This document shows positions 18,287 through 62,016 of a stretch of 64,000 nucleotides of DNA, one piece after another. The first letter of the stretch is position 1, and every line of letters begins with the position of its first letter. This DNA is from a virus (lineage: Duplodnaviria > Caudoviricetes), in IMG/VR virus record IMGVR_UViG_3300047382_000771, positions 128,001 through 192,000 of that record; one strand, 5' to 3'. The notes beneath the pieces were generated by a model that did not search any database, was not told the origin of the DNA, and worked only from the letters and a program-made list of their open reading frames with translations. A program made the position numbers and the translations under genes.

Positions 18287-19843
18287 TTAGTTAATGTAGT
18301 TCATGGCAATCTTAGACTCGTAGTACTTAGTGCCTACTTGAATGACTTTGCCAGCAAGATATTGTCTTGAAATATCGAAAGGTTCCGCATCGGGTGGTAC
18401 CTCAGAAAAGAAAGGAACATTTTCCTCACCTTGTTCATTGATCCATGCTGGAGGAATGCCTGGGATAGAAGCTTTAGTATTTTCTTTGCCCCATAGGAAT
18501 AATCCTCTATTAGCATCATCGGCTCCACCAATTTGGGTAGAAAATACCAAGTCAACACTTTTATTTTCTCCGATAGAAGAACTAAAGTTTTCAGACTCAA
18601 GTCTAGCTCCCTTTAATGTGAATTTAATAGCTTCTGCATCAGACTTAACTTCACATCCATAACATTCTGGATCAAATACTGTGACAGACACTTCGTGTTC
18701 ATCGCATCCGCAAAGAAGATCAATCATGTTTCCTGCTTGTAAATCGGAAAGTGTCGCACTAACATTGAATGTCGCTGTTAATGGGAAGTCGATTGACTTA
18801 GAAAAACCAAATGTAGAACCAAGACGTTGCAAGGTTGTTCTAGCTAAAGGAAGGTTGATAGCACAAGACTGGATATGAGCACTTCCACGAACTGGAGCGT
18901 CAAGACTTCCTGTTACCTGCTTACTAATCAACGATTGTCCAGCTAAATCTAGAACCACATCTCCTGGTCGAAGGGCTGCGGTATCTTCGCATCCTGCATA
19001 ACCACTGTCCGCTTGAGGAAGAGAGAATAATCCAGTACAACCTGGTGCTGAAGCTGGCTTGCATTTACCGCGTTCTCCGTTGTGCCATGCATCACTAATT
19101 ACAGCTGAATTAGCTGTGTCAACAGAAGGAAGGTCTAATCCAGTAGCTCCAACGTCACTACGGATATTCATGCCTTCAACCGTGCAGCTTACAGTAGGAA
19201 TACTTCCTACAGAAATGTCAATACTATAGTCGGTAAGAAAACCATTTCCAAGAGAAATAACCGTTTTCTTCTCATCTCTTCCCTCTTCATCCAAAGTAAC
19301 ATCTGCGCCAATTGCATCACGAGCCTCAGGAACAGTTAAGATGAAGAAGTTGTGGCCAGCTTGGTAAAGCTCTGGAGACATAGCTCCACTCAAAGCATTA
19401 GTTACACCATTGGTTACGAATTCAAGCATACGCTCATTGTAGCCATCAAGCAAGTAATAAGAAAAGTCTAAGTTAACAGTTGGGGAGTCAATGACAATAG
19501 AGTCAAGCTTAGAAAGTTGACCGTATTGATTGATGTCTTGTTTGTTGATAGTGAAGCCATAGTTCGCACTCTGGATTCTCTTTAACTGTTTAATGATAGA
19601 ACCGTGGCCTTCTGCATAATTAGCATCAGATCCATCTGGATTCCACTTTGGCCATTGGTCGCCGCAGCGCCATCCAACCATTTGACCCTTTGAATTGACC
19701 CCGCCAGCAGCTTGGTCAGAATTAAGAGGAGGTGTCATTAGACCGTAACCGCCTTTACCAGTAAAATGGTATCCAGTGGAGTCGGGGCTAATGAAGAGCG
19801 CCTCTGATTGATAAATTACTCGATTTCTGTGAATAGATGACAT
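18287..19843 (-). CDS. Major tail tube-like protein paralogue 2
   Basis: MSSIHRNRVIYQSEALF; near-identical blocks with the adjacent gene; beta-rich; tail region position. Confidence 0.65.
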   Translation of the reverse strand: MSSIHRNRVIYQSEALFISPDSTGYHFTGKGGYGLMTPPLNSDQAAGGVNSKGQMVGWRCGDQWPKWNPDGSDANYAEGHGSIIKQLKRIQSANYGFTINKQDINQYGQLSKLDSIVIDSPTVNLDFSYYLLDGYNERMLEFVTNGVTNALSGAMSPELYQAGHNFFILTVPEARDAIGADVTLDEEGRDEKKTVISLGNGFLTDYSIDISVGSIPTVSCTVEGMNIRSDVGATGLDLPSVDTANSAVISDAWHNGERGKCKPASAPGCTGLFSLPQADSGYAGCEDTAALRPGDVVLDLAGQSLISKQVTGSLDAPVRGSAHIQSCAINLPLARTTLQRLGSTFGFSKSIDFPLTATFNVSATLSDLQAGNMIDLLCGCDEHEVSVTVFDPECYGCEVKSDAEAIKFTLKGARLESENFSSSIGENKSVDLVFSTQIGGADDANRGLFLWGKENTKASIPGIPPAWINEQGEENVPFFSEVPPDAEPFDISRQYLAGKVIQVGTKYYESKIAMNYIN

Positions 19844-19877
19844 GATTTTTTTTCCTCGTGTATTAATGTATTAAAGT

Positions 19878-21437
19878 TTAAGCCCTATAACCTAAGATTT
19901 GCGCATCCGTGATACCATTACCAAGAAGATCTGCAGCGACAGCTGCAGTTAAAGCTCCGTCACTTGGATGTGTTGGTATATTTACCGCTCCTCCTGCTCC
20001 TGTCCATGCTGGAGGGATGCCTTTATGGGAGTTTTGGCTAGCACTATAGCCAGACAAAAATACTCCATTTCTTGAATCATCTGCTCCTCCTACTTGTACT
20101 GTAAATGTCATATCTACAGTTTTATTGTCGCCGATTGTTGATGAAAAATTCTCAGACTCTAGACGACAGCCTTTAAACCCAAACTTCATGGCAGCTTCAC
20201 CTGTTTTCAGGTTACAAGAAGCACACTCTGGTGGGTAAATTGTTACAGTTAAATCTACAGATCCACATTCACATAATAGATCAGCAACATTTCCACGCTT
20301 CACATCTGCGAGAGATGCCGAAACATTCATTGTTGCTGTAATGGGTACATCGATAGATTTCGAAAATCCAAAAGTATTACCAAGTCTTTGGAGCGTGGTC
20401 CTAGACATTGGAATGTTCATTGAAACAGACTGGATATGAGCAGTACCCTTTTGAGGTACATGACTATCTCCAGAATTCGTAATTGCAATAAGAGATGAGT
20501 CTTTTAAATCTACCACAACATCTCCAGGCCTAAGTGCCGCAATATCGCCACACCCTGAAAAACCAGTTACTGCTGCGGGTAATGAATAAAGCCCCGTGCA
20601 TGTGTTTGGATCACTGTGTATAACTTGATTGTTGTCATTATCATACTCCCATGCATCACTAATTTTAGAACCGTCGGTTAACCTAATGGCTGGAAGATTT
20701 AATCCAGTTTCTCCAATATCACTTTGCATATTCATGCCTTCAACAGTTACATTGGCTGTAGGAATAGAGCCTACGGCTACATCAATATTATAGTCTGTAA
20801 TAAATCCGTTACCTAATGCTATTACTGTTTTCGATGTTGAACCGAATCCTGATTCAGTATCAAGTCTAACATCTCCAGCTACCGCATCACGGGCTTCAGG
20901 TACAGTTAGTAAGAAAAAGTTGTTTCCAGCTTGGTAAAGCTCAGGGGACAGTGCTCCGCTCAAAGAGTTTGTTCCCCCATCAATATTAAATTCTAGTAAT
21001 CTTTCGTTTTCTCCATCAATAAGGAAATAACTAAAATCCATGTTTACAGTTGGCTGTTCTGTAACAATTGAGTCAAGCCTAGATAGTTGGCCGAACTGAT
21101 TGATATCAACCCTGTTTACAGTGAATCCGTAATTAACAGACTGGATTCTTTTTAGCTGCTTAATAATTGAACCATGGTCTTTAGCAAGATTAACGTCATG
21201 CTTAGGGTCGTCGTAAGGAAAAGCGTTCCATTTTGGCCAAGCTGCTTGCGTATCATTCGGGTGCCAACCGCAGAGATATTCGCCCAGGGTACTGGACCCT
21301 GCGATTTCGGTACGGGTTTTGGGGGGAGTCATTAGACCCATTCCTCCGTTTCCCGTGAAGTGATAACCTGTGGCGTCTGGACTTAGAAATAAAGCTTCAG
21401 ACTGGTAAATTACTCGGTTTCTGTGAATTGCAGGCAT
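19878..21437 (-). CDS. Major tail tube-like protein paralogue 1
   Basis: MPAIHRNRVIYQSEALF; shares IIKQLKRIQS.NYGFT, LSPELYQAG.NFF and TLQRLG.TFGFSKSID with paralogue 2. Confidence 0.65.
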   Translation of the reverse strand: MPAIHRNRVIYQSEALFLSPDATGYHFTGNGGMGLMTPPKTRTEIAGSSTLGEYLCGWHPNDTQAAWPKWNAFPYDDPKHDVNLAKDHGSIIKQLKRIQSVNYGFTVNRVDINQFGQLSRLDSIVTEQPTVNMDFSYFLIDGENERLLEFNIDGGTNSLSGALSPELYQAGNNFFLLTVPEARDAVAGDVRLDTESGFGSTSKTVIALGNGFITDYNIDVAVGSIPTANVTVEGMNMQSDIGETGLNLPAIRLTDGSKISDAWEYDNDNNQVIHSDPNTCTGLYSLPAAVTGFSGCGDIAALRPGDVVVDLKDSSLIAITNSGDSHVPQKGTAHIQSVSMNIPMSRTTLQRLGNTFGFSKSIDVPITATMNVSASLADVKRGNVADLLCECGSVDLTVTIYPPECASCNLKTGEAAMKFGFKGCRLESENFSSTIGDNKTVDMTFTVQVGGADDSRNGVFLSGYSASQNSHKGIPPAWTGAGGAVNIPTHPSDGALTAAVAADLLGNGITDAQILGYRA

Positions 21438-38940: not shown

Positions 38941-39990
38941 TTATATTGCATCCTTTTTTGAGATTCCTAATATTCTAGCCTTCCAGCTTTCCATATTGTC
39001 AAGCCGTTCGACTTCTTCCTCGACTAGAGCTTTTTGCATGTCAGCTAACTGAATCATTTGCTTCCTCTGCTCCTCTAGTTGGAAATTCTTAACAAGCGAT
39101 AATATACTGGCATGATCGTCACGCCGATTCTTTAGTCGCTCTGCACGGTCACCATTTAATTTCTTAATAAGTGATTCCATGCGTTTCTCACATTTGTCGT
39201 ATTCGTCAGTTTTAGATTTTAATACTTCTGCTAGTCTAACAGTCATATCTTGCTGATCCTCAACCTCATTAAACATATTATTTAACTTTTCTATATGAGA
39301 AGATATATTTTTTAAATTAATATAATCCACACAGACATTAATATATAAATTTATTTCGTCTGCTGTAAGATCTGGTTTATCCCATGTAGCCCTTATGAAT
39401 TCAGCCTCAAATAATTTTCTATCTTTATCACTACTATAGTTACCTATTACCTGAATGAATCTAGGAGAAGAAAGGTTCCTGATAAGGTTCTTGGCACATT
39501 CTATATCATCGTGTGTCATCTTATCTTCAACGAACTCTGTATGAGCAAATTCGTTAATTTTACCTACAGCTGTTTTTATTATTTTAGGCGGATGGTATTG
39601 CCTGTTAATAGCTGTTTCGCTTTCATGGACAAAATTAGGCTCATATTCTCTTAAAAACTCTAATACGCAGACATGGTGCTTGGAGAATCTTTTAACAGTG
39701 ACATCTGGAAACAGTATTTCTGCAATTTGAAATGCACTCAACCCGTTCTCAGCCTGAGCCTTAATAAAATCTACTTGAGCTTCGGTTAAATCTATATCTT
39801 CCATTTTCTCCCAAGCACTAGTCTCATATTCCAAGTTTTGACTTGCTAGAAATTTCCTAACCGCCCTGCCTTCTTTTGTGCGACCATCTAAGTCGGGATC
39901 GCCGAACAGTCTTCTAGTTAAATCAATAAGACTTGGATTTTTCTTAAACTCTTCAGTTAAGAACTGTTGCTGCTCGTCAGTTAAGTCCAT
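38941..39990 (-). CDS. HTH plus coiled-coil protein, possible terminase small subunit
   Basis: GLSAFQIAEILF HTH-like segment; long C-terminal coiled coil; upstream of TerL. Confidence 0.35.
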   Translation of the reverse strand: MDLTDEQQQFLTEEFKKNPSLIDLTRRLFGDPDLDGRTKEGRAVRKFLASQNLEYETSAWEKMEDIDLTEAQVDFIKAQAENGLSAFQIAEILFPDVTVKRFSKHHVCVLEFLREYEPNFVHESETAINRQYHPPKIIKTAVGKINEFAHTEFVEDKMTHDDIECAKNLIRNLSSPRFIQVIGNYSSDKDRKLFEAEFIRATWDKPDLTADEINLYINVCVDYINLKNISSHIEKLNNMFNEVEDQQDMTVRLAEVLKSKTDEYDKCEKRMESLIKKLNGDRAERLKNRRDDHASILSLVKNFQLEEQRKQMIQLADMQKALVEEEVERLDNMESWKARILGISKKDAI

Positions 39991-40720
39991 CTAGATCGTC
40001 CTCCCCTTTTAGGAATGTGATACCCTTATCTTGCAGTATTTTTACCGCTTTTTCTTTTAGTAAATTTTTAAGGTTTTTTATTTGTTTGTAGCCAGCCTTC
40101 CTTCCAGACTCACTGCTTTTAAAGCCCATCTCTTTGGCTGCTTCTTCGTCTGTTAATTTTTGTACATATAGTAATTGAAATGCTTGCCACTGCCTTTTAT
40201 TTAAAGCACCCTTTAATTCATGTATTAATTTACCAATAGATTTATCTATATTATGGTCATCATACTCTTCATGATTATTTATTTCGTGATAATGATTTTC
40301 TATAGATAATGTAATCTTTACATTGTATGCTTGTCTTTTTGTTTTTTCCCACTTAGCATATAAAGGACAGCCCCCATCTTGCTTGCCGCTAACAGTAAAC
40401 TTACATTCGTTTTCTATAGAATCATTAGAGAAAGGACAATTCAAACAAGGTCTAGCGTAATTACTGTAATTATTTCTTAATATATTTTTAAATTGATTAC
40501 TTATTATTTTATTAAGCCAAGGCTTTATTGGTCTGTCTTGATCCCATTGAGCCCATTTCTTATGTATGTGCGCACGGATGATTTGGCAGACGTCATCAAA
40601 GTCAAGCCAGGATACGGATGTCAAGAACCAGTTGTTGCGCCTTTTATTTAATTCAGCGTCAATTAATTCTGAGAAATCTTCGTATTTGTATTCTGGGTCA
40701 GGGTCTTTCTTTGTCCTCAT
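39977..40720 (-). CDS. Phage RNA polymerase sigma factor (sigma70 family, regions 2 and 4)
   Basis: DFDDVCQII...KPWLNKIISNQFKNILR (region 2); LNKRQWQAFQLLY..LTDEEAAKEMG (region 4 HTH). Confidence 0.8.
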   Translation of the reverse strand: MRTKKDPDPEYKYEDFSELIDAELNKRRNNWFLTSVSWLDFDDVCQIIRAHIHKKWAQWDQDRPIKPWLNKIISNQFKNILRNNYSNYARPCLNCPFSNDSIENECKFTVSGKQDGGCPLYAKWEKTKRQAYNVKITLSIENHYHEINNHEEYDDHNIDKSIGKLIHELKGALNKRQWQAFQLLYVQKLTDEEAAKEMGFKSSESGRKAGYKQIKNLKNLLKEKAVKILQDKGITFLKGEDDLDGLN

Positions 40721-51427: not shown

Positions 51428-51736
51428 ATGAGAAAAGTAACACAACAAATCAAGGAAGCTTTCGAGCAAGGCAAATCTTTAAAAGTAGGTAATACCAAGA
51501 CAGACGGCAAGACTGTTTGGTTGCATGGCAACGCTATTGTTAAGCGTGATCCTGACGGGCTTGTCAGGTGGTCGCTTGCGGGATGGAATACCCCCACCAC
51601 ACGCGAACGCGTCAATGGTATAGCAAATGCAGGAGTTTGTCAATATAAATTCGAGCCTGTGTTAAATGGTCAAGAAATTGACTCATCCGATTGGTTCGCC
51701 TGTAATACCACATTGCCTGATCCTCTCATTTTCTAA
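51428..51736 (+). CDS. Phage hypothetical protein
   Basis: LHGNAI...AGWNTPTTRERVNG, a motif pattern I associate with uncultured phage proteins. Confidence 0.7.
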   Translation: MRKVTQQIKEAFEQGKSLKVGNTKTDGKTVWLHGNAIVKRDPDGLVRWSLAGWNTPTTRERVNGIANAGVCQYKFEPVLNGQEIDSSDWFACNTTLPDPLIF

Positions 51737-51747
51737 CAAAAGCCTTA

Positions 51748-51817
51748 CCTAAGTGCTTGACTATCAGGCACTTAGGCGGGCCCGCCCGCATAAGTCGTTG
51801 GTATTCAATGACTTATG
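51748..51817. repeat. Double-palindrome element R1
   Basis: cctaagtgcttgactatcaggcacttagg-cgggcccgcccg-cataagtcgttggtattcaatgacttatg. Confidence 0.95.
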
Positions 51818-51931
51818 AAACATCCGTACAAACATCGCGCCAATTCACATGGTCGGATAGTGCAATAAAATAGTTGCTAGATAATTGCGAATAAATTTGA
51901 CTTTAGCTATAATTTCCCTTAGTTTATATAT

Positions 51932-52282
51932 ATGAAATCATTATATAACACAGACACACAAGAATTCACTTTTAACTTTATCATGGGCATCGATGGTACA
52001 TCCTACCGAGTCGAAGCGGTAGCTTGTCAAGATGATATCCTATTGAATGATCAGTATCGCGCCGAATACATCGACGTTTACATGGCTAAATTGACTGAGG
52101 AGAAAACAGGTGAATTGACCGAATCAAACACCTACAAGAACACAGATCTTTTAAAGGTTGTAAGCGATAAGCTCACAGAAAGGTTAATCACTAATGCAAG
52201 CAAAACATGGTTTGTGACTGATGCGCCAAGACTTTTCCTTGAGCAATTGGACACTTGTTTAGAAATAATGTTTGATAAATAA
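51932..52282 (+). CDS. Early hypothetical protein
   Basis: TTGACT-17-TAGTTT-6-ATG. Confidence 0.75.
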   Translation: MKSLYNTDTQEFTFNFIMGIDGTSYRVEAVACQDDILLNDQYRAEYIDVYMAKLTEEKTGELTESNTYKNTDLLKVVSDKLTERLITNASKTWFVTDAPRLFLEQLDTCLEIMFDK

Positions 52283-52328
52283 TTGTTTTAGTGTTGACTC
52301 AAGCAAGCCGATAATCTACCTTATACAT

Positions 52329-52664
52329 ATGAATATAACAAATATAACATTCTCAAAAATCGATCACAAACTAATCACAGCACATCTATCCTTTGCTGAT
52401 GCTAATCATGAGTATGGAACTATACGTGCCGAAGGTGTATCTCGCAAGCAGTGCATATATAACTTATGCAAGGAGGGCAAGTTGCCGTGGAAGTTGTTTG
52501 GCGCAGCTCGCGCGATGGCAATGCGTCACACCGACCCCAGGTTTCCCAGGGTTAGTAGTAGCAGAGAAGACGACAGACTCGCAGACATCTGCGACGATCT
52601 GAATTGCTCGGTTAGTGAAGCTCGCCACTTTCAGGAGACAGGCGAACACCCCGTAAATTGGTAA
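52329..52664 (+). CDS. Early hypothetical protein (start revised to MNITNITF)
   Basis: TTGACT-17-TACCTT-6-ATG at 52329. Confidence 0.7.
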   Translation: MNITNITFSKIDHKLITAHLSFADANHEYGTIRAEGVSRKQCIYNLCKEGKLPWKLFGAARAMAMRHTDPRFPRVSSSREDDRLADICDDLNCSVSEARHFQETGEHPVNW

Positions 52665-52671
52665 AAGTTTG

Positions 52672-52741
52672 CCTAAGTGCTTGACTATCAGGCACTTATG
52701 CGGGCCCGCCCGCGTAAGTCGTTGGTATTCAACGACTTATG
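52672..52741. repeat. Double-palindrome element R2
   Basis: cctaagtgcttgactatcaggcacttatg-cgggcccgcccg-cgtaagtcgttggtattcaacgacttatg. Confidence 0.95.
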
Positions 52742-52858
52742 TAAAAATCGCTATAACGCGGCTTTTAGCCCGTGTCAAGATTATTTGGTAAAAAATAAAT
52801 CACAATTAAACATCTTTTTTCTTGCTATGTATTAGTATATCCCTTATGTTGTATATAT

Positions 52859-53098
52859 ATGACAGATAATTACGATTCACTCGACCGCCTCGCTCACGCC
52901 TCAGGGATGACTGACCTTGAATATGAAGCTCAACAAAAAGAGCTTGCTCGCCTTGCTCGTTTCGACAAAATCATCGAAGACGTTAGGGACAGCGATGAGC
53001 CTGCTGAAATGCCTGAGGTTCATCGCAACCATGAAGAGCCTAGCATAGACGCTTATGATGACTATGACTATGGCTACCATGACCAATACGAGCAATAA
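52859..53098 (+). CDS. Small very acidic early protein
   Basis: Own promoter; D/E/Y-rich C-terminus. Confidence 0.7.
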   Translation: MTDNYDSLDRLAHASGMTDLEYEAQQKELARLARFDKIIEDVRDSDEPAEMPEVHRNHEEPSIDAYDDYDYGYHDQYEQ

Positions 53099-53101
53099 GC
53101 T

Positions 53102-53172
53102 CGTAAGTCGTTGGTTATCAGCCCTTTATGCAGGGCGGCCCGCCATAAGCCGTTGAATACCAAGGACTTATG
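53102..53172. repeat. Double-palindrome element R3
   Basis: cgtaagtcgttggttatcagccctttatg-cagggcggcccgc-cataagccgttgaataccaaggacttatg. Confidence 0.95.
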
Positions 53173-53276
53173 TAAAAACTTCTATAGCGCGGGCTTAGTC
53201 CCGTGTCAAGATTATTTGATGGAAAATAAAACACAATTATGTTTGACATTCGCCCTCAAATATAGGATAGTAAGGT

Positions 53277-53465
53277 ATGACAAAAATTAAAGAACCATTC
53301 AATAAAGGCGATGTTCTTATATCGCGCGACAATCAAATACTGCAATACCAGGGCGAGTTCAATCATCCCGAGCTTGGTCTAATAGCTGAAGTGCGTATCT
53401 ATCGTACAGATCGCATAGTAGGCATTCGTTTCGAGGATGTAAAACTTCACCCGTTTTTCGCATGA
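53277..53465 (+). CDS. Early hypothetical protein (SH3-like)
   Basis: Promoter-linked; PFNKGDVL...; 62 aa. Confidence 0.7.
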   Translation: MTKIKEPFNKGDVLISRDNQILQYQGEFNHPELGLIAEVRIYRTDRIVGIRFEDVKLHPFFA

Positions 53466-53677
53466 GTGAACGCGAACCATATCCTCAACTTGACTGCGCT
53501 CTTGCTATGAGTAAGGCTCGTGGTAATCTTAACTTTCTTCTAAATAGAACAAAAGAAGAATGGAGCGAAACCTTTACTACGGCAGAAGCCATAAGGGATG
53601 CTCATGCCGCGCTTGACCAAGCTCAAAAAGAATACAAAAAAGTCTTGACTCTACTAACAAACTCTAATACATTGTAA
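53462..53677 (+). CDS. Hypothetical helical protein
   Basis: ATGA overlap with the upstream gene. Confidence 0.65.
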   Translation: MSEREPYPQLDCALAMSKARGNLNFLLNRTKEEWSETFTTAEAIRDAHAALDQAQKEYKKVLTLLTNSNTL

Positions 53678-53681
53678 ACAT

Positions 53682-53867
53682 ATGATCTCAATCAAAAAAA
53701 ATCAAAACTTCTCTAATTGGTTTCAAGTATTCGCTTTCGGTAAAATGATAGACGAATTCAGTCGCAGAAGCAAGGCGGTGCGTCGTGCTGAAGAATTAGC
53801 GATACAAGCAAACCAAAAATACATCAATGTCGAAGGACTTGCACAAAAAATTAAATATGGCAACTAA
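53682..53867 (+). CDS. Early hypothetical protein
   Basis: TTGACT-17-TACATT-8-ATG. Confidence 0.65.
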   Translation: MISIKKNQNFSNWFQVFAFGKMIDEFSRRSKAVRRAEELAIQANQKYINVEGLAQKIKYGN

Positions 53868-54066
53868 AAAACTCGTACTCACCACAATATCCCAAGGCAA
53901 GATTGCCGTTGTAGAAAGTGCCGAAAGGGCAGATGACAAGAGGGGAGAAAGATACATAAGCGAAGATTGCTTGGCTGTCAATCTTAAAAACGGAGCGTTT
54001 ACTGACATTACCGCAACAGGTGCAAACCCCGAAGGTAGATTGTATATGTTCACCGAAGATATGTAA
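53827..54066 (+). CDS. Hypothetical protein (start may be 53857)
   Basis: Last + strand gene before R4. Confidence 0.55.
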   Translation: MSKDLHKKLNMATKKLVLTTISQGKIAVVESAERADDKRGERYISEDCLAVNLKNGAFTDITATGANPEGRLYMFTEDM

Positions 54067-54132
54067 GTCGTTGATTATCAAGCCCTTAGGCGGGGCGGCC
54101 CGCCATAAGTCGTTGACTTACAGGGGTTTATG
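54062..54132. repeat. Double-palindrome element R4 (at the convergence point)
   Basis: tgtaagtcgttgattatcaagcccttagg-cggggcggcccgc-cataagtcgttgacttacaggggtttatg. Confidence 0.95.
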
Positions 54133-54135
54133 TAA

Positions 54136-54363
54136 TTAATCTTCCAAGAGCAACTCATCAAGTGCATTGATGTCAAGATCGGGATCGTTGTAGCTCGCCC
54201 CGTCAGGAGTCTGAAATGTTTCCATTTCTTCCAAACGATCTGCAAAATCAACATACCTCACACATCTGCGAGCTAACTTGTAAAGCAATTCGTCATTAGA
54301 TAACCAAAGTGCAACATTCCAAGTTGCCCAATTTTTCCATCCGTGATATGTTGTATCTGTCAT
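54136..54363 (-). CDS. Phage hypothetical protein (YxGWxNWxTWNVALW family)
   Basis: YHGWKNWATWNVALWLSND motif. Confidence 0.75.
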   Translation of the reverse strand: MTDTTYHGWKNWATWNVALWLSNDELLYKLARRCVRYVDFADRLEEMETFQTPDGASYNDPDLDINALDELLLED

Positions 54364-54365
54364 AA

Positions 54366-54569
54366 TTAACTTTCTTTAAATTCTTTTATAATTTGCTCCA
54401 TTTGTGAAAGTACAGATTTTTTGTTTCCTTTGAATCCGTATTGTTCTTTAATGATTGAATATGCTGATTGACCTCTTCTCTTCATTCCGACGCACTCCAT
54501 TTTGAGAGCGGATCTGAGACTGAGAAATCGAAACATATCTTGTTTTTCGGGTGTGTCTAATGTAATCAT
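54366..54569 (-). CDS. Early hypothetical protein
   Basis: TTGACA-17-TAGATT-6-ATG. Confidence 0.75.
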   Translation of the reverse strand: MITLDTPEKQDMFRFLSLRSALKMECVGMKRRGQSAYSIIKEQYGFKGNKKSVLSQMEQIIKEFKES

Positions 54570-54600
54570 AATAATAATCTAGTTCAGTTTGTTTTGTTTG

Positions 54601-54840
54601 TCAAGCTACTTCAGCCAAATCCTTTGCCAATGCTTTTTCTGCATCCACCTGCTGTTGTAGTAAGTTGAGTTTGTTGAGTAAACCTTTGTAGCCGATATAG
54701 TCGCCACGAAAGTGACCCTTCCAAACCCCGTCAACTCTTTGGAATGTAACATCCCAAGCAGATTTATAGTCATAAGTTCTTAGCAAGCCATTTGGCAAGC
54801 GCTCGAAGTAGAATTCTTTTCCGTTGTCTTTAATTGTCAT
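54601..54840 (-). CDS. Early hypothetical protein
   Basis: TTGCTA-17-TAGTGT-6-ATG. Confidence 0.75.
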   Translation of the reverse strand: MTIKDNGKEFYFERLPNGLLRTYDYKSAWDVTFQRVDGVWKGHFRGDYIGYKGLLNKLNLLQQQVDAEKALAKDLAEVA

Positions 54841-54903
54841 ACCAACACACTAAGGCATCTAACTAACTATAGCAAGAAAAAACTTCAATAAAAAAAAGAT
54901 TGT

Positions 54904-54974
54904 TCTAAGTCGTTGAATGTTAACGGTTTACGCAAGGCGGCCCGCCGTAAGTCGTTGACTTACAGGGGCTTATG
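54904..54974. repeat. Double-palindrome element R5
   Basis: tctaagtcgttgaatgttaacggtttacg-caaggcggcccgc-cgtaagtcgttgacttacaggggcttatg. Confidence 0.95.
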
Positions 54975-54977
54975 AAA

Positions 54978-55706
54978 TTAATGGGCTAAGTAAGCAATGC
55001 CTTTCTTGCATCCTTTGATGAAGCATAAGTTGCAATTATGGGCTTGACAAGTTGCAAGAATCTTGCCGTCCTCACCTTTAACATAAGTTGCGGGGCAAAC
55101 AAAATGTCCGTCTTGCTCGGCTTGCTCTTTGCTAGTATAAACCGAAGTGCCTGCGTCAAGCCCGTCTACTTGAGGGGCTGGCTCGTCAACATAGATTGCG
55201 CTCGGCTTAATGCAAACATTTTTAAGACTAGCTAACTTTTGCAAGTGTGGAAGTTGAGAGTCGCGTTTCCATTCTCTAGTTGGAAACCAAAATTTAATAG
55301 TTGGAAATTGCTCGCAAATTCTAACCCATGCAGAAATATACCTGGGGGAAAAGAGGTCGCCTGAATCATGAACGCGAAACAAATCCGTGTTTGTCTTTTT
55401 GAGTTTTTTCTTGTTGCCATGCTTGTCGAAATACTTTGCGCGAATTTGTTTGCACATTGCATTAACAAAAGTGTCTCCATTGTCTTGATGTAAAGACTTT
55501 GTAATGAGATCCGCCTTGCCTTGCAAGCTTGCCTTGACATTGGAAAACATATAAAAACCTTTGCAAGCATAGCAAGAATCGCAAATGAATTTCTTGCCCG
55601 CTTCTTTAATCTTTGCTAATAGCTGCGCGGCAGGGCAATACTTGAAAGCAGGAATGTTGAACGAATAGCAAGGCATCTTGCTCGGGTTGGATAATAAGTT
55701 AATCAT
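54978..55706 (-). CDS. Gp88-family protein (Cys-rich, radical-SAM-like fold)
   Basis: SKMPCYSFNIPA..CP...CDSCYA...FRVHDSGD...KFWFPTRE. Confidence 0.75.
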   Translation of the reverse strand: MINLLSNPSKMPCYSFNIPAFKYCPAAQLLAKIKEAGKKFICDSCYACKGFYMFSNVKASLQGKADLITKSLHQDNGDTFVNAMCKQIRAKYFDKHGNKKKLKKTNTDLFRVHDSGDLFSPRYISAWVRICEQFPTIKFWFPTREWKRDSQLPHLQKLASLKNVCIKPSAIYVDEPAPQVDGLDAGTSVYTSKEQAEQDGHFVCPATYVKGEDGKILATCQAHNCNLCFIKGCKKGIAYLAH

Positions 55707-55769
55707 AAGAATACATTACCACCGAACTTAACTAAACACAAGAAAAAAGTGAATTAAAATAAAAGTTGT

Positions 55770-55840
55770 CATAAGTCCTTGGTAGTCAAGCACTTACGCG
55801 GGGCCGCCCGCCATAAGCCGTTGAGTATCAACGACTTACG
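55770..55840. repeat. Double-palindrome element R6
   Basis: cataagtccttggtagtcaagcacttacg-cggggccgcccgc-cataagccgttgagtatcaacgacttacg. Confidence 0.95.
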
Positions 55841-55990
55841 GGGTTTCTTATCCGCGTCCCGCTAAAAGGGTGAGTTCTTATTTACCTGAACTCTATTTCG
55901 TCCCTGTCGCTGAACATACATTCAAACATAAGAAAGAAAGCAAAAAAGGTTGGCATGAGAAAGAATAAATAAACAAAAAATTCTAATATA

Positions 55991-56266
55991 CTATCCATTG
56001 TAGACTCCTTTCATTTGGTCAGATATACCTAAGCCCATGAAGTTGTCTTCTTCGTCAATGTCTTCGGCATTTGGGGAATGCTTTAACAATGAGGACTCAT
56101 CTTCAATGTCTGACTTTTGCGCGTCTAGTAAACCATGCTCGCCCAAAACCTCTTGAGACTTAATCTCTGAGACGAAATCCTCAAGGGAAGTTTTAAGACC
56201 AAGACCCTTGGAGTCTTGGACGGCGTGCTTAATGATGGCGATTCTTTGATCTTCTGTTAATGTCAT
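55991..56266 (-). CDS. Small acidic early protein
   Basis: TTGACT-17-TACCTT-6-ATG. Confidence 0.7.
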   Translation of the reverse strand: MTLTEDQRIAIIKHAVQDSKGLGLKTSLEDFVSEIKSQEVLGEHGLLDAQKSDIEDESSLLKHSPNAEDIDEEDNFMGLGISDQMKGVYNG

Positions 56267-56287
56267 AATAATAAGGTAATCTAGTTT

Positions 56288-56632
56288 TTAGTGAGAGTCA
56301 ACAAGTTTTTGATTAAAGTCTGCCCGTATTGCTACAAGCAAATCTTCGTGAGCTTTGCCGTCCATCTCAAATTGATGCATAAGAGAAGTAATTCTGTGTG
56401 GCTCTTGCCAACCTAGCACATCATCAGAGACAGATAAAGGAACCCAACTTCCGTCGGGATTAAATACTGCAACTTCAAAAGTATCGGGATAACGACCATA
56501 AAATGGCTCAAATGCTCCCTCATTTTTACCCGCAATAACTGAAAAAGAATATCCGTTGTCAAGTGTGAGCGATGCCATCCATCTTCTCATGGATTCATCG
56601 TAAGTGAATTTTAAATCATCGAATGTTTTCAT
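56288..56632 (-). CDS. Phage hypothetical protein (NGY.xSVI...FEVAV family)
   Basis: Own TTGACA promoter; motif pattern typical of phage early proteins. Confidence 0.7.
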   Translation of the reverse strand: MKTFDDLKFTYDESMRRWMASLTLDNGYSFSVIAGKNEGAFEPFYGRYPDTFEVAVFNPDGSWVPLSVSDDVLGWQEPHRITSLMHQFEMDGKAHEDLLVAIRADFNQKLVDSH

Positions 56633-56668
56633 ATAATAATATATATACTATTGGTTATTGTCTGTCAA

Positions 56669-56875
56669 CTAAAACTTTAGCGCTTGAATGGAAGTATTCT
56701 CTCTGCACCATTTTCTTAATGGATGATGAGCCTTTGGACTCAAGTGAGTCAAATACTGCTTCCCATTAGTTGCCATAAGCATATAGCCTTTGGCGGTTGC
56801 GCGGATGTCTTTGATTTCTGGACATTTACGCAATTGCTTTAGTATCTTTAAGTTTCCGCTATCTCTGTGTTTCAT
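56669..56875 (-). CDS. Small basic early protein, possibly HicA/dsRBD-like
   Basis: TTGCTG-17-TAATGT-6-ATG; alpha-beta-beta-beta-alpha pattern. Confidence 0.6.
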   Translation of the reverse strand: MKHRDSGNLKILKQLRKCPEIKDIRATAKGYMLMATNGKQYLTHLSPKAHHPLRKWCRENTSIQALKF

Positions 56876-56939
56876 ACTACTACATTAAGACGGATAGCAA
56901 GTGACAGCAAGAAAAAAAGTGTTTTTTTTTACTTAGCTA

Positions 56940-57010
56940 CATAAGTCGTTGGTTATCAAGCATTTATGCGGGGCGGCCCGCCGTAAGTCGTTGAATATCA
57001 ACAACTTATG
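56940..57010. repeat. Double-palindrome element R7
   Basis: cataagtcgttggttatcaagcatttatg-cggggcggcccgc-cgtaagtcgttgaatatcaacaacttatg. Confidence 0.95.
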
Positions 57011-57026
57011 AAATAAATCAGCCCAC

Positions 57027-57055
57027 AAAAAAGCCCCTCCGTTTGGAGGGGCTTT
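57027..57055 (-). terminator. Rho-independent terminator after the DUF932 gene
   Basis: AAGCCCCTCC-N4-GGAGGGGCTT followed by a T run on the minus strand. Confidence 0.85.
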
Positions 57056-57076
57056 CTATATTTGTCAAGCTTTTAT

Positions 57077-57940
57077 TTAAGCTTCGACTAATTCACCTTC
57101 AACTACCTCCATATCGAGAACATTTTCGACATGGTTTTTAATATCAAAGTTGACCTCGCCATCAAGAACGGAGTGCAAGGCATCCGAGCGATTAGGTAAG
57201 GCAACTAAGTTTCCTTTATACACCTCAGTAAAAGCATTGTAAAGAGAATTTACATTGCGATCCCAAAATTCGGGGTGATCGGAAGACTCCCATTGATTGA
57301 CAACATCCATGATTTTAGACTTAGGCAAAGCACCTGCCTTGCAAGCCCTAATCACAAGATCGTTAGCATGGGAATTTGAAAGATCAAAATCTTTATAGGC
57401 ATTGATGCGATTGTCTTGACCATTCCAAAAGCCAAACAATTTGCCCAATGCACGATTGATAGTAAAATCAAGATCTTGCAAAATGTTGCGAGTGTGGCGA
57501 CGCGCTAATTTAATAGTATTGGTAAAAATAAGATTATCGCACACAAAGGGAGCATCACCTGCACACAATCCCGCAGGAAATGTTTTGTCGTGAGAGTTGC
57601 GAAGACCAACTACACAACCACGATCACTAGCCTTACGATTAGGGTGATCGACTGAAAATAAACCAAAATAGTGGTTATCGTTGCGAGCAAGAGAGTGAAC
57701 CTCATCTTGAATGGTGAAGCCATTGGTTTCCAAAAAACCTTTGGTGCGATGCACTAATGCCTCATGGGCGATAGGCTGATAAGAGACGGCTCTTTCGCCA
57801 TTGGCATTTTCTTTCTTGCGATACTCTACGGGCGGAGTAGGAACCCCGACTACTTGATCGAAATCTACAAGAGTACGATTGCCTCCGCAGATATGAAGAT
57901 TAACTTTGGGTGAGTTGTTGGTATTTTCTGTAGTATTCAT
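57077..57940 (-). CDS. DUF932-family protein
   Basis: YQPIAH...GLRNSHDK...PFVCDNLIF...RRHT...SLYNAFTE. Confidence 0.8.
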   Translation of the reverse strand: MNTTENTNNSPKVNLHICGGNRTLVDFDQVVGVPTPPVEYRKKENANGERAVSYQPIAHEALVHRTKGFLETNGFTIQDEVHSLARNDNHYFGLFSVDHPNRKASDRGCVVGLRNSHDKTFPAGLCAGDAPFVCDNLIFTNTIKLARRHTRNILQDLDFTINRALGKLFGFWNGQDNRINAYKDFDLSNSHANDLVIRACKAGALPKSKIMDVVNQWESSDHPEFWDRNVNSLYNAFTEVYKGNLVALPNRSDALHSVLDGEVNFDIKNHVENVLDMEVVEGELVEA

Positions 57941-57978
57941 AATAGTGATAATATAGTAGTGATTGTTTTTGTCAATAG

Positions 57979-58212
57979 TTAATTTTTATAAACTTGAGAT
58001 AGTTGATCGTAGGCATAAGCTTTTTCAGCGATACTACCGAATACCTCTTTTAATAAAGAGTAGCCTAGTAAATCCCTAGCATCTAAATCTGCCTTGTCAA
58101 TAATATTGACTTCTAATAATTCAGTCGCTGTATCCATTGCTTGTATGGAATCTAAATTACTAAAGTCGATTTCTGTGTCGCCTTCGTTGTGTGAGTTAGG
58201 TATATAATACAT
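57979..58212 (-). CDS. Small acidic hypothetical protein
   Basis: 77 aa, D/E-rich. Confidence 0.6.
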   Translation of the reverse strand: MYYIPNSHNEGDTEIDFSNLDSIQAMDTATELLEVNIIDKADLDARDLLGYSLLKEVFGSIAEKAYAYDQLSQVYKN

Positions 58213-58321
58213 AATTTTTCTTGTGTTTAACTTTGCGGTCTAAGACTTTGTTTCTCATTTTGAATGCTCTTGCCTTAGTGAAAAGGATTGGCTTTCTTAC
58301 TTTTACTTCTCTTGCTTTCAT
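58196..58321 (-). CDS. Small very basic early protein (41 aa, MKAREVKVRK...; start revised)
   Basis: TTGCTA-17-TACTAT-6-ATG at 58321; the longer ORF-track version runs through R8. Confidence 0.6.
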   Translation of the reverse strand: MKAREVKVRKPILFTKARAFKMRNKVLDRKVKHKKNYVLYT

Positions 58322-58385
58322 ATAAGTATAGTAAGCTATAAAAGTAATTATAGCAAGAAAAAAGTTAAGTAAATTGGCATTTTGT

Positions 58386-58456
58386 TGTAAGTCGTTGAAT
58401 ATCAACGAGTTGCGCGGGGCAGGCCGACCTAACCCCTTGATAACCAAGGAGTTAGG
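58386..58456. repeat. Double-palindrome element R8 (divergent core)
   Basis: tgtaagtcgttgaatatcaacgagttgcg-cggggcaggccga-cctaaccccttgataaccaaggagttagg. Confidence 0.9.
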
Positions 58457-58647
58457 CCTTTTAACTACTAACTAAGCTGTAATGTGGCGAGTTCTTTTCT
58501 CCGCCCTATAGAGTTGATATAATAAATCCTGGTGGGACCTTTTTAAGGTGAAGTACTCGGGGGTGTTTTCCCCGTATATTTCTCTGACCGCTAATTGGTA
58601 CCCAAGTTTACGAATGTTTTCTCTGAGAGTTTTAATTTGCATTTTTT

Positions 58648-58881
58648 TTATCCTTTGTTAAGTGAGATTATACGATCATAACGAAAGGAGCGAACAGCTC
58701 CCCTGTTGAAGCAGTAGCTCCTGAAGCCCGCAACAGCGAGACCTTCTTTGACATTACCGAACTCATTTTTGTGTTTCGGCTTTGTGATAGTGTACATCTG
58801 CGTTTTACCGTCTTTAGTATTGTAAACAACACTGTATACGGGGAGTAATAACTTAAGCAACTTCAATAACATTTTCTTCAT
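58648..58881 (-). CDS. Stand-alone WYL-like domain protein
   Basis: YSVVYNTKDGK...RSFRYDRIISL. Confidence 0.6.
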   Translation of the reverse strand: MKKMLLKLLKLLLPVYSVVYNTKDGKTQMYTITKPKHKNEFGNVKEGLAVAGFRSYCFNRGAVRSFRYDRIISLNKG

Positions 58882-59107
58882 GTTGATCCTTTCTTACGGG
58901 GTTTAAGTTGTAGTGATTGTAAGCATCAGTCACTTCCTGTGCTGATTCGAAACTTACAGAAATTAAATCTCTCTCTTGGCTTGGATGCCATGGTGTCTCT
59001 GATTCCTCAAAGAATAGTAACCAAAGTTCTGATTCCTCGTCCCATTCGGGCAAACCCAAAGGCTTCCCGATACAAGTTGCTTCTATGTAATTGTTCATGA
59101 TTATCAT
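58853..59107 (-). CDS. Small acidic hypothetical protein
   Basis: 84 aa, preceded by TTGACA. Confidence 0.6.
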   Translation of the reverse strand: MIIMNNYIEATCIGKPLGLPEWDEESELWLLFFEESETPWHPSQERDLISVSFESAQEVTDAYNHYNLNPVRKDQHEENVIEVA

Positions 59108-59142
59108 AATGTACTACTTAGTTGTTGGTGTCAACTCCTTAA

Positions 59143-59364
59143 TTAACAAGGAATTGGTGAATCTTCTTCTGTTTCAATGGTAATGCAAAAGTGGCTTGCG
59201 AGCTCCTTGATCATTACATCATTATTGAAATAATTATAAGCAAAAGTTAAAAGTTGCTCTTGCTCTTCCCCTGTATGGCCGTCTCTGAGTTCGTCATATA
59301 TCTCAAAGATATTCATATTCCAATTCCATCCCTCTACTCTTGATTCTATCTGTGATTTTGTCAT
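59143..59364 (-). CDS. Small acidic hypothetical protein
   Basis: 73 aa with AAGGA RBS. Confidence 0.6.
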   Translation of the reverse strand: MTKSQIESRVEGWNWNMNIFEIYDELRDGHTGEEQEQLLTFAYNYFNNDVMIKELASHFCITIETEEDSPIPC

Positions 59365-59377
59365 AATGTTCCTTGTG

Positions 59378-59611
59378 TTATAGTTGTGCTGATTGAAAAG
59401 ATGATTCTATCCTAATCTCGTTTTGTAGTGATGTCAAACTCAAAATGATATCTTCCAAGGTTTCTTCGGCAGACATTATAGTCGCACCAAGTGGAAACTT
59501 TTCAGGATGACGCTCGTGTTGTTGAAGACATACCTTGGACATTGGATCTGCCCACGCAAGTTCTCCTCGAACTATGTTTAAGATTTCTTCTCTAATTTTA
59601 CTTTGCGTCAT
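59378..59611 (-). CDS. Hypothetical protein
   Basis: 77 aa, overlapped by the upstream 57-aa ORF. Confidence 0.6.
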   Translation of the reverse strand: MTQSKIREEILNIVRGELAWADPMSKVCLQQHERHPEKFPLGATIMSAEETLEDIILSLTSLQNEIRIESSFQSAQL

Positions 59612-59771
59612 TTTTTGCCCTTTCGTTTAGATTGTCCGCTATCTTTGCAAGACGAAGAATTTCCGCTTGAACAAACTTTTTAGCTTGTGGTTCTGCTTTT
59701 GGGTTCTTCAGCACCTCGATCATTGGAAGAATGAGCGCTGACCATTTAGGTGTTACATCAATCGTTTTCAT
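59598..59771 (-). CDS. Hypothetical protein (57 aa, MKTIDVTPKWSALI...; below ORF-track cutoff)
   Basis: TTGACA-17-CATACT-7-ATG; hand translation. Confidence 0.6.
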   Translation of the reverse strand: MKTIDVTPKWSALILPMIEVLKNPKAEPQAKKFVQAEILRLAKIADNLNERAKNDAK

Positions 59772-59912
59772 GTTTTACAGTATGCTTTAATTCTTGGATG
59801 GTGTCAAATATAATTTTATGAATTTCATCAGTAAATTCGATTGGAGCACCCGCGTCTGATAAGTAATCACGAACTCTATCTTGAAGTTTTACTTGTAATT
59901 TGTGTATTGGAT

Positions 59913-60119
59913 TCATCTGTGCAAAGCTACCCTCACTTCATTCTCATGTTTTTTTTGTTCAACTAAATCTTTTAAGTCAAAGCTAATACTGCAGAGAGTA
60001 CTACTGATATTCTCCATCACCTTGACGAGATCCCCCATGTTTGCGTGTCTACGATTTTCTAACATCTCGTCAGCGACTCCGTCAATGGCGGTTTTAATTG
60101 CATATAATTCTTCTTTCAT
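59913..60119 (-). CDS. Hypothetical coiled-coil protein
   Basis: 68 aa abutting its neighbours. Confidence 0.55.
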   Translation of the reverse strand: MKEELYAIKTAIDGVADEMLENRRHANMGDLVKVMENISSTLCSISFDLKDLVEQKKHENEVRVALHR

Positions 60120-60317
60120 TTAGCTATACTTTACTCCTTCTAATTCTGATTGCAACCATAAAATGGCTTTTTGTCTGATGTCACAGTGTGAGACTTCAGT
60201 AAATACATTGTCATTGACTCGAAGATAAAGATCGTTTCCGTTCTTTTTTTCTGTCTCTAAGTCGTTTGCTTCATACCACTTTTGGGCATAATCTATCATT
60301 CTTTGTTCGTGGCTCAT
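60120..60317 (-). CDS. Hypothetical protein
   Basis: 65 aa. Confidence 0.55.
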   Translation of the reverse strand: MSHEQRMIDYAQKWYEANDLETEKKNGNDLYLRVNDNVFTEVSHCDIRQKAILWLQSELEGVKYS

Positions 60318-60440
60318 TTTAATCCTCGCTGTTTATGAAAGCATTGTATAATTTTATTAAATCTGCATCAGATCCATGCTCAATGATGCTCATTAGATAA
60401 TCAACTATGTCTGATTGTGATAAGTTTTGTGTTTCTTTAC

Positions 60441-60842
60441 TCATGGTATGTAGGCGGTTACTTGGTTGTGTGATAATAAAACTTCATCTGCGTAGTATAC
60501 AAACTTTTCGGTGTTCTTGTCAACAAAAGTCTCATACTTGTATGGATTATATGTTACCTGGGTAGCGGGTCTGTCGGTGTTTACATTCTCAGCATCCTGA
60601 AGGTAACCCTTGACAAATGCGTGAACATTCTTCTTCTTTTCACGAAGAACTTTTTCTCTACCCTTGATATCAACATGAAAGTAGCAATCCCACAAACCAA
60701 TAGAATGATCCTTTGGGATGTGAGCCTTAACTAACCCGTGTTGCTTGACTGACCAGCAGTCCTTGTGGAGATTCTTGTATACATAAACAGGTCGATTGGA
60801 CTTGAGAATGTATCTTGGGTCTTGTTGGTTTCTCTTAATCAT
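60441..60842 (-). CDS. Phage hypothetical protein (VYxNLHKxxWSV...KNVHAFV...VTYNPY family)
   Basis: TTGCGT-17-TATTGT-6-ATG; motif pattern. Confidence 0.75.
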   Translation of the reverse strand: MIKRNQQDPRYILKSNRPVYVYKNLHKDCWSVKQHGLVKAHIPKDHSIGLWDCYFHVDIKGREKVLREKKKNVHAFVKGYLQDAENVNTDRPATQVTYNPYKYETFVDKNTEKFVYYADEVLLSHNQVTAYIP

Positions 60843-60906
60843 ATAACCACAATAGTCTACTTAGGCAGTTGACGCAAGAAAAAAGTGAAATTAATTTCAA
60901 TGTTGT

Positions 60907-60977
60907 CGTAAGTTGTTGTTTACCAAGCACTTACGCGGGGCGGCCCGCCATAACTCGTTGACTATCAAGCACTTACG
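60907..60977. repeat. Double-palindrome element R9
   Basis: cgtaagttgttgtttaccaagcacttacg-cggggcggcccgc-cataactcgttgactatcaagcacttacg. Confidence 0.95.
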
Positions 60978-61165
60978 GAAGTCAAGTTTTTGAGCAAAAA
61001 AAATGACAACTAATTATTTAGCTGCCACTTATTTATAATATATTTATTTGTAATTGATTTGTAATATATGTATTTGTAATTTAATAATTTATTATGTCTT
61101 ATAGTTTTGTACTAGTATAAAAAACACTATAGCTGTAAAAGATAAAAACATTATTGCATCCACTG

Positions 61166-61544: not shown

Positions 61545-62016
61545 TAGGGATGGGGGACGTGAGCTTTCGCTCGAAATAGATGTGGGACAGGAATACTGAA
61601 TACCTGCAACTTTCGGTGTGAACATCAGTTCATTGGTTATCCTACTTGTACTACAATTGAATTGGACATTCTACCTCAGACATTTGTCCATTGGCACTCC
61701 ACCACAGAGAATCATATACCTTACCTCGCACACAAAGAGGTCTTCGGTCACCCACAGGGAGGATTATAAGCCCTCCCAAAGAGAATCACGAAGGAGAAAC
61801 AAAACTGACAACTCTGCTTGGCGCCTTCTTTGCAGGGGTTCGTCAACCAATGTCATATCAAGTTTCTGCTTAGCGAGCAGTCTTCAATCAGTACGGAGAT
61901 GTAAGATTGTAAGTACTGAAGCTAAAACTTCGTAAAATTATTTAAAATGTAAAAGATCGAAAAGTCTGGGGTTATTTTATTTGATTGAGTTACCCCTTCT
62001 CAATTATGGAGAATAT
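61505..62016 (-). ncRNA. Candidate structured ncRNA of about 510 nt
   Basis: TTGACA-17-TACTAT promoter with no ATG at the start site, many hairpins, own terminator, no convincing ORF. Confidence 0.5.

Follow-up and report, generated by a model that had tools for sequence, protein, structure and literature searches.

Paired, symmetrised IHF-like sites around a GC-rich dyad, repeated among the early genes of an uncultured marine phage

Described counterparts and the plan of the repeat

The ingredients of the system described here, namely sites for integration host factor (IHF), repeats linked to promoters and mosaics at gene ends, are known (PMC3333891). What we analyse is an array of nine intergenic elements, R1-R9, in bases 128001-192000 of the 200,094-bp IMG/VR viral record IMGVR_UViG_3300047382_000771; this whole stretch of 64,000 nt is called the window, and positions refer to it unless stated otherwise. 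Each element consists of two palindromic arms that flank a GC-rich core, and from sequence comparison we lean towards the reading that the arms are sites of the host's IHF, and that the composite element serves as an architectural element of early promoters and as a boundary between transcription units.

The early promoter pL of phage lambda is one of those with an upstream IHF site, and the C1 operators of P1 as well as the OB sites of KorB in RK2 are bound by a regulator that the respective genetic element encodes. For phage Mu, positive control of the early promoter by IHF appears among the titles cited in PMC3820752. The BIME-1 elements of Escherichia coli, also termed RIB or RIP, consist of two inverted repetitive extragenic palindromes (REPs) that flank a linker with an IHF site, and insulator roles have been proposed for BIMEs (PMC3333891). 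In T4-type phages, the PeSL is an intergenic repeat next to a strong early promoter, found with small non-essential genes and at cassette junctions (PMC2839356).

The array resembles each of these systems in part. As at Mu Pe, consensus-type sites lie about 60-120 bp upstream, an A/T tract is found by the -35 box, and a host architectural protein would be used, but the predicted sites of the array differ from those of Mu Pe and lambda pL in that they form a perfect dyad, are paired around a GC core, occur nine times per genome and keep a fixed distance to leaderless promoters. Like BIME-1, the array consists of mosaics that recur outside genes, are placed where transcription units have their 3' ends and are built from GC palindromes and IHF or IHF-like sites, but its architecture is not that of BIME-1. 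It is reversed, as two IHF-like sites flank one GC palindrome, and it is phage-borne and promoter-coupled; a RAYT-type (Y1) transposase was not found in the phage genome. The likeness to the PeSL lies in a repeated module by an early promoter among small genes: a sigma70-like early promoter is joined to the repeat, at a fixed distance in five of the nine elements and at 75 nt in one more, and the elements lie at junctions of cassette gain and loss, the cassette between R6 and R7 being absent from a close relative. Whereas the stem-loop of the PeSL is a working terminator, the palindromes of the array look like protein sites, with no selection for pairing in the arms, covariation in the GC core and no U-tract. 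Dispersed operator networks such as those of P1 C1 and RK2 KorB are alike in that one palindrome recurs at many promoters of one replicon, and they would be the model for the dedicated regulator that is the main rival of IHF. In the literature, we found no account of the arm sequence or of phage IHF-repeat arrays, and we did not find the composite described, i.e. a symmetrised IHF-like pair around a GC dyad that recurs in series in front of leaderless early promoters and is shared by a clade of uncultured marine phages.

The phage is an uncultured marine phage of about 200 kb, its genome is rated complete by CheckV, and the first 100 bases of the record recur at position 199933 of the record, which implies an end overlap of about 160 bp. 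The GC content is about 38%, and the minus strand holds nearly all genes. The phage is widespread in the sea, and at least half of the sampled words of positions 51700-61000 are present in 12 metagenome runs (seawater or viral) that belong to 11 studies; one run is possibly the source sample. A fuzzy search of the whole genome found the repeat confined to positions 51750-60975, in nine copies that are all intergenic and lie among small genes in the early region. Every copy follows the same plan, with two 25-bp arms whose starts are 41-42 bp apart and a 16-17-nt core of almost pure G+C between them; the first coordinate of each line is the start of arm 1.

51750-51815: R1, arms 51750-51774 and 51791-51815, GC core 51775-51790
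52674-52739: R2, arms 52674-52698 and 52715-52739, core 52699-52714
53104-53170: R3, arms 53104-53128 and 53146-53170, core 53129-53145
54064-54130: R4, arms 54064-54088 (both half-sites perfect) and 54106-54130 (degenerate), core 54089-54105
54906-54972: R5, arms 54906-54930 and 54948-54972, core 54931-54947
55772-55838: R6, arms 55772-55796 and 55814-55838, core 55797-55813
56942-57008: R7, arms 56942-56966 and 56984-57008, core 56967-56983
58388-58454: R8, arms 58388-58412 and 58430-58454, core 58413-58429
60909-60975: R9, arms 60909-60933 and 60951-60975, core 60934-60950

All 18 arms agree at positions 1-3 (TAA), 8-10 (TTG), 17 (A) and 23-24 (TT), in a numbering with a 2-nt offset from the original prediction, whose positions 15-27 and 3-15 are 13-25 and 1-13 here. 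The core of R1 is inverted in orientation with respect to R4-R9, and R2 is a recent duplicate of R1 (93% over 76 nt). Concerning the flanking genes, R1, R2 and R3 begin 13, 9 and 5 nt past the stops of plus-strand genes (51428-51736, a gene ending at 52664, and 52859-53098, respectively), and R4 sits exactly between convergent stops (plus-strand gene end 54066, minus-strand gene end 54136). The arm centres of R5 lie at about -78 and -120 from the start of the minus-strand gene 54601-54840, and R6 is upstream of a GP88-family gene (54978-55706, minus strand).

In two copies the second arm is a collapsed variant (R4b, 54106-54120; R5b, 54948-54962), as the left half together with the spacer yields TAAGTC GTT GACTTA, a dyad that is short but perfect, and the degenerate right half has three mismatches to the IHF consensus. 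A lone arm-like sequence with five mismatches lies at 60258-60282 within a small open reading frame (ORF), without partner arm or core, and is probably a chance match or a decayed copy.

Selection on the arms and their likeness to IHF sites

At least 120 IMG/VR stretches contain the arm motif, and in about 85 of these contigs there are multiple arms, nearly always as pairs that are repeated every 0.3-2 kb. The unique pairs fall into the following classes of start-to-start spacing.

41-42 bp: 96 unique pairs
48-50 bp: 131 unique pairs
53 bp: 16 unique pairs
58 bp: 29 unique pairs

The in-phase spacing of 42 bp that had been proposed for the two sites of an element is therefore true of this phage, but 48-50 bp is commonest across the family. 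In four of five element-bearing records tested, TerL is 39-93% identical to that of this phage, and the element-bearing contigs are fragments of one broad clade of large phages, in whose early regions genes for PhoH, a sigma-like factor, GP88, an L5 gp82-like protein and DUF932 are common. The motif is absent from cultured phages in GenBank, where megablast and blastn searches with the region and with single elements gave chance-size partial matches only.

Within the arms, there is no sign that the palindrome is maintained by base pairing. Among 717 unique arms from the roughly 85 multi-copy contigs, non-consensus cells are Watson-Crick in just 2-12%, the paired fraction corresponding to the shuffled expectation at every symmetric pair, and under a model in which arm a pairs with arm b the Watson-Crick share of such cells is 0-13% (317 pairs). 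Minimum-energy folds of the nine elements are inconsistent, giving three hairpins, one long hairpin or a mixture. As the arm halves show no compensatory change, the arms are read as double-stranded DNA, and two halves that evolve independently to the same sequence are the signature of a dimeric or pseudo-dimeric protein on double-stranded DNA. The data thus argue strongly for the arms being protein sites, and the claim that selection is of the protein type and not of the hairpin type, which the original prediction had drawn from this phage alone, holds for the family, with no compensation within or between arms and folds that vary by copy. Selection for pairing is limited to the core, where it affects the pairs 5-13, 6-12 and 7-11 (z 4.7-8.6 in the 17-nt class); in the 58-bp lineage, the core has a constant GACCCC/GGGGTC stem with loops of the UUCG or UACG type.

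Besides, in several elements the four variable bases (N4) of the right half of arm a are able to pair with the start of the GC core, with sites at 53121-53137 and 54082-54097 and, in a related locus (L243), at 12449-12462 and 13724-13738. The changes look compensatory by eye only (CCCT/AGGG, GCCC/GGGC, CCGG/CCGG, GCGC/GCGC), and the register shifts between copies.

Which protein could be involved is suggested by the logo of the family. Against ascertainment bias, the logo was built from 236 partner arms that were picked by position alone, i.e. at the usual distance of the lineage from a strong arm and across the GC-rich core. It reads cg TAA gtcs TTG A n W a T CAR sgac TTR cg, its most informative positions are the CAR and TTR boxes and their mirrors (TAA, TTG, CAA, TTA), and the degeneracies at position 18 (A.80, G.17), position 25 (A.81, G.14) and the centre (A.42, T.46) are the R, R and W of WATCARNNNNTTR. 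The position weight matrix of the family reaches 13.7 of the possible 16 bits against the IHF consensus, which was equalled by 1 of 20,000 permutations of columns and base labels (about 5e-5, uncorrected for other motifs). The proposed resemblance to IHF sites is thus borne out at the level of the family, and a fit by coincidence seems unlikely, even if one allows for the many motifs that a reader might recall.

The count of half-sites in the phage itself has to be read with care. When scored against WATCAANNNNTTR, 8 of the 36 half-sites are perfect, 25 have one mismatch, one has two and two have three, so that 33 of 36 are within one mismatch. This is exactly the tally originally given (with three half-sites at two or three mismatches), and the perfect examples named there, R6b, R9b and both strands of R4a, are correct as well. 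Outside the arms, 26 perfect and 446 one-mismatch matches occur on both strands of the 200-kb genome, where base composition lets one expect 23.8 and 445.6; as the rest of the genome is at the expected level, the excess is confined to the arms. The 36 half-sites are copies of one repeat family, and their number is therefore not independent evidence, which is why the statistic used instead was how well the consensus of the family agrees with that of IHF. Furthermore, the view of each arm as two back-to-back boxes had to be given up. An IHF footprint covers about 35 bp and the two boxes share the central W, which precludes their joint occupancy, so that there is one symmetric site per arm, and 18 sites instead of 36. 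As to the idea that the N4 positions vary while the boxes are retained, this applies to the right half, in which N4 varies freely, but the left-half N4 (GTCG) is as conserved as the flanking boxes, with agreement of 14-16 of the 18 copies per position.

The geometry of the arms can be compared with that of known complexes. In the IHF-H' complex, the two kinks induced by prolines are separated by 9 bp and the consensus is found on one side of the site (bioRxiv 10.1101/382655; PMC8421141), with 6 bp between the centre T of TTR and the kink closer to it (PMC5829579). The arms agree with this geometry: there are likewise 9 bp between the AA steps at 8|9 and 17|18, each TTR centre (position 2 or 24) is 6 bp further out than the nearer step, and the palindrome is centred on W. 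In the IHF crystal structure the kinks are at 28/29 and 37/38, which would place the pseudo-dyad through the W of the arm. With its centre on the IHF dyad, the arm would represent one symmetrised site of the IHF/HU type. A usual IHF site differs in its other half, as in the arms this half is the mirrored consensus and has no A-tract. The footprint of about 35 bp leaves room for two dimers side by side on arms that are 42 bp apart.

Promoters, cassette junctions and the candidate binders of the arms

On the minus strand, the elements R5-R9 are all followed by one fixed arrangement, in which 24-25 nt of AT-rich linker lead to a T-run, the -35 box (TTGCNN) and the -10 box (TAnnnT) come next with 17 bp between them, and the ATG follows after 6 nt. 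Five of the nine elements (R5-R9) thus precede a leaderless early promoter, with a distance of 30-31 bp to its -35 box.

54838-54882, minus strand: promoter module downstream of R5, with T-run (24 nt from the arm), -35 TTGCTA, 17 bp, -10 TAGTGT, 6 nt, ATG
55704-55748, minus strand: promoter module downstream of R6
56873-56918, minus strand: promoter module downstream of R7
58319-58363, minus strand: promoter module downstream of R8
60840-60884, minus strand: promoter module downstream of R9
52815-52861, plus strand: promoter module near R2, 75 nt from it and not 24

The strict module of T-run, -35, -10 and ATG occurs eight times in the genome, six times next to an element. The association extends to the family, in which outward sigma70-like promoters are found on 199 of 625 element flanks, compared to 60 on the opposite strand, and the distances between arm and -35 start form sharp peaks at 16-17 and 30-31 nt.

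In the same interval there is a terminator that does not belong to the element.

57030-57055, both strands: canonical bidirectional intrinsic terminator, between the stop of a DUF932-like gene (57077) and R7

As this terminator is separate, R7 is not itself the terminator there, and many elements in relatives likewise have a separate canonical terminator between gene and element. In a scan for intrinsic terminators, none of the nine elements has a GC hairpin directly before a U-run; the scan calls one element, with a stem at 52694-52719 over the core of R2, the tail of which is not a uniform U-tract.

To the right of R2 and R3, at 52750-52778 and 53181-53209 on the minus strand, there are promoter-like sequences (TTGACA, 17-bp spacer, TATAGC or TATAGA) that face back into the element and are antisense to the plus-strand gene before it; these flanks are 76% identical over 107 nt.

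A close relative allows the comparison of orthologous elements. It is a 210.8-kb contig (G004:C4) in a metagenome-assembled genome (MAG) titled Cellvibrionales, it is syntenic with the window, its TerL is 78% identical, and it has about 12 elements. The orthologous arms differ at many positions, but the TAA, TTG, CAR and TTR boxes are kept. In the relative a single element separates the GP88 gene from the DUF932 gene, and in this phage the same place is taken by R6, three ORFs and R7; the interval with the three small ORFs (55839-56941) corresponds to a 1,170-bp indel that ends in elements, and a piece of one of these ORFs adjoins a different element in the relative. Since the indel ends in elements and the ORF fragment lies beside another one, the elements mark cassette junctions. 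The other contig of the MAG, a low-GC gammaproteobacterial candidate host, has a GC content of 36-37%, like the phage. It encodes IHF alpha (TIGR00987, 159.5 bits, cut-off 120), an IHF beta that the assembly split in two, and a split HU. By TerL and GP88, the nearest cultured phages are only 22-30% identical and too distant to name a host, and PhoH falls into viral clusters only in the protein atlas. In the phage itself, PF00216 (HU/IHF) has no match at E<=1 in the complete genome, and three related phage records have no HU/IHF above the cut-off. A phage-borne IHF or HU had been named as something to look for, and its absence is what the IHF idea predicts.

How could such an element work? The 25-bp arm with a flanking CG on both sides would be a double-stranded recognition site, two-fold symmetric and of the IHF/HU family type, in which TTR, four bases, a CAA-type kink step and the central W are followed by the mirror image. 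Host IHF would be the most likely binder, with one dimer per arm in either orientation, and binding to both arms would generate two sharp bends, with 42 bp between them and the stiff GC-rich dyad in the middle. Placed where one early transcription unit ends, the element would most plausibly play an architectural role upstream of the next one, wrapping the DNA to boost or time the early promoter, and act as boundary (insulator) between early genes that each have their own promoter. As one copy resembles the other, they also serve as junctions at which cassettes are gained or lost by recombination. IHF is the best single candidate in view of the consensus fit including the degeneracies, the geometry, the lack of a phage homologue and the precedent at phage early promoters, and we infer its binding, the bending and the effect on transcription. 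Compaction of the first-injected DNA, which the original prediction had also named, would be a conceivable further role. One can go further and regard the element as a portable "gene socket" of the whole clade, in which a pair of symmetrised IHF-like sites clamps a GC dyad to keep small early genes insulated, individually promoted and leaderless, while 18 high-affinity sites per genome copy recruit host IHF in bulk, which might set the timing of early transcription and withdraw IHF from processes that the host needs it for, e.g. CRISPR adaptation, the sockets being the points of cassette exchange; this extended scenario is speculative, and we consider it doubtful.

Several observations do not fit easily to IHF as binder. 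The link between phage and MAG comes from binning and GC composition only, and the IHF dyad may lie on W or one base further. R4 has no promoter on either side, and R1-R3, which lie among plus-strand genes, are 70-81 nt from the next -35 box. N4 carries 0.3-0.9 bits and the flanking CG 0.6-1.1 bits, both conserved beyond the E. coli IHF consensus, so that the site is more specific than this consensus alone; the summed information of the palindrome exceeds that of typical IHF sites and would suit a dedicated regulator at least as well. Due to the confinement to one clade, a clade-specific phage protein could be the binder, and as arm spacing (41/42, 48-50, 53 or 58 bp) and arm-promoter distance (16-17 or 30-31 nt) differ by lineage, no single three-dimensional architecture is conserved.

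What alternatives exist for IHF? The main rival is a dedicated dimeric regulator, be it encoded by the phage, injected with the DNA or provided as another host factor, which would read the whole 29-bp palindrome and switch the early promoters as a set, with the IHF likeness being partly coincidence. Such a regulator is possible but, in our estimate, the less probable solution. It would account for the conservation of N4 and flanking CG, for the restriction to one phage clade, for the spacing that varies between lineages and for the fact that, in the MAG of the candidate host, the full motif at up to three mismatches is found on the phage contig only, and dispersed operator sets are a well-known design of global regulators of phages or plasmids. 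Against it stands that 30 small early ORFs have no recognisable DNA-binding domain in Pfam or PHROGs searches, and that no protein family is common to most loci, the best one being present in 30 of 123 sequences (122 loci and the window), although this argument is weak as the loci are partial. The conserved blocks at 2, 9, 17 and 24 have the spacing of IHF wrapping and would be awkward for a helix-turn-helix dimer, and the chance fit to the IHF consensus calculated above would have to be accepted.

Two other alternatives were considered. Structured nucleic acid at gene ends, be it an RNA hairpin or a DNA cruciform that terminates transcription, directs processing or stabilises the mRNA, would be in line with the start of six of the nine elements at most 17 nt past the preceding stop codon, with the position of R4 between convergent genes, with the good folding of the single strands (z -1.5 to -7.5), and with the covariation of the GC core and the stem-loop core of the 58-bp lineage, but the arms covary under neither fold model, the folds disagree between copies, U-tracts do not follow, canonical terminators adjoin the elements here and in relatives, and no Rfam family matches the elements at gathering thresholds, which together make this explanation very unlikely. 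Recombination modules in the manner of PeSLs, i.e. cassette-shuffling repeats or recombinase sites that do without a dedicated binding protein, would explain why the cassette between R6 and R7 is gone from the relative and a piece of its ORF lies beside another element, and PeSLs do behave in this way (PMC2839356). Repeats that are kept by homology only, however, would not retain a position-specific logo while spacer and flanks randomise at TerL identities down to 39%, and neither a tyrosine recombinase nor a Y1 transposase is found in the genome; that recombination is the main function is most unlikely.

If IHF is indeed the binder, this would be the first case known to us of a phage lineage in which symmetrised IHF sites, arranged in pairs, are a standard component in front of many early genes, and a natural system to study bending versus promoter strength, the insulation of adjacent leaderless units and repeat-driven cassette exchange. 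If a phage protein binds instead, the elements give its regulon and its operator at single-base resolution, and the protein should be easy to find by pull-down.

Rejected candidates and further features

Other candidates were rejected. An integron attC or tyrosine-recombinase core site is opposed by the lack of PF00589 in the complete genome and of arm-arm covariation, and attC-like or REP/RAYT readings in general lack recombinase, Y1 transposase and arm pairing. Hairpin promoters like those of phage N4 were dismissed because the giant ORF of the window encodes a tape-measure protein and not a virion RNA polymerase. A bacterial site across phyla was dropped as well: the arm pattern matched at least 120 loci in many phyla, often hairpins after tRNA genes, and as the pattern has just 17 fixed bases, about 70 chance matches are expected in 596 Gb, a number that hairpins push up. 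The genes beside the bacterial matches are unrelated to one another, and the multi-arm "bacterial" contigs are phage contigs that were binned into MAGs.

Two metatranscriptome runs contain small shares of one gene, in fragmentary contigs that come from relatives with 90-95% identity. The apparent joints of these contigs at elements are ambiguous arm mappings with no bearing on transcript ends, and no RNA dataset is listed as containing the whole stretch.

The phage has two or three sigma-like proteins. Matches to Sigma70_r2 are at 39977-40720 (minus strand) and at genome positions 19802-19990 (minus strand), with 27.2 and 24.4 bits, and one gene of the sigma-70 family is part of a conserved cluster with PhoH and a 350-aa protein that is common to many element-bearing contigs. 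In related lineages (L112, e.g. at 3656-3671 and 3778-3793, and also L011 and L014), sequences like sigma54 promoters (TGGCAC-N5-TTGC) lie 13-20 nt from elements; this motif has 42 matches in 1.1 Mb, 23 of them no more than 60 nt away from an element, facing either way and in many cases into the element.

At the other end of the window, the open frame 3-8999 (minus strand) encodes a protein of 2,999 aa or more whose N-terminal part contains a PhageMin_Tail (tape-measure) domain, which implies a very long tail for this siphovirus-like genome of 200 kb. In a gene-poor stretch, 61577-61777 (minus strand) matches the manA RNA of Rfam (RF01745) over the full model length, with 61.8 bits compared to a gathering threshold of 55.2.

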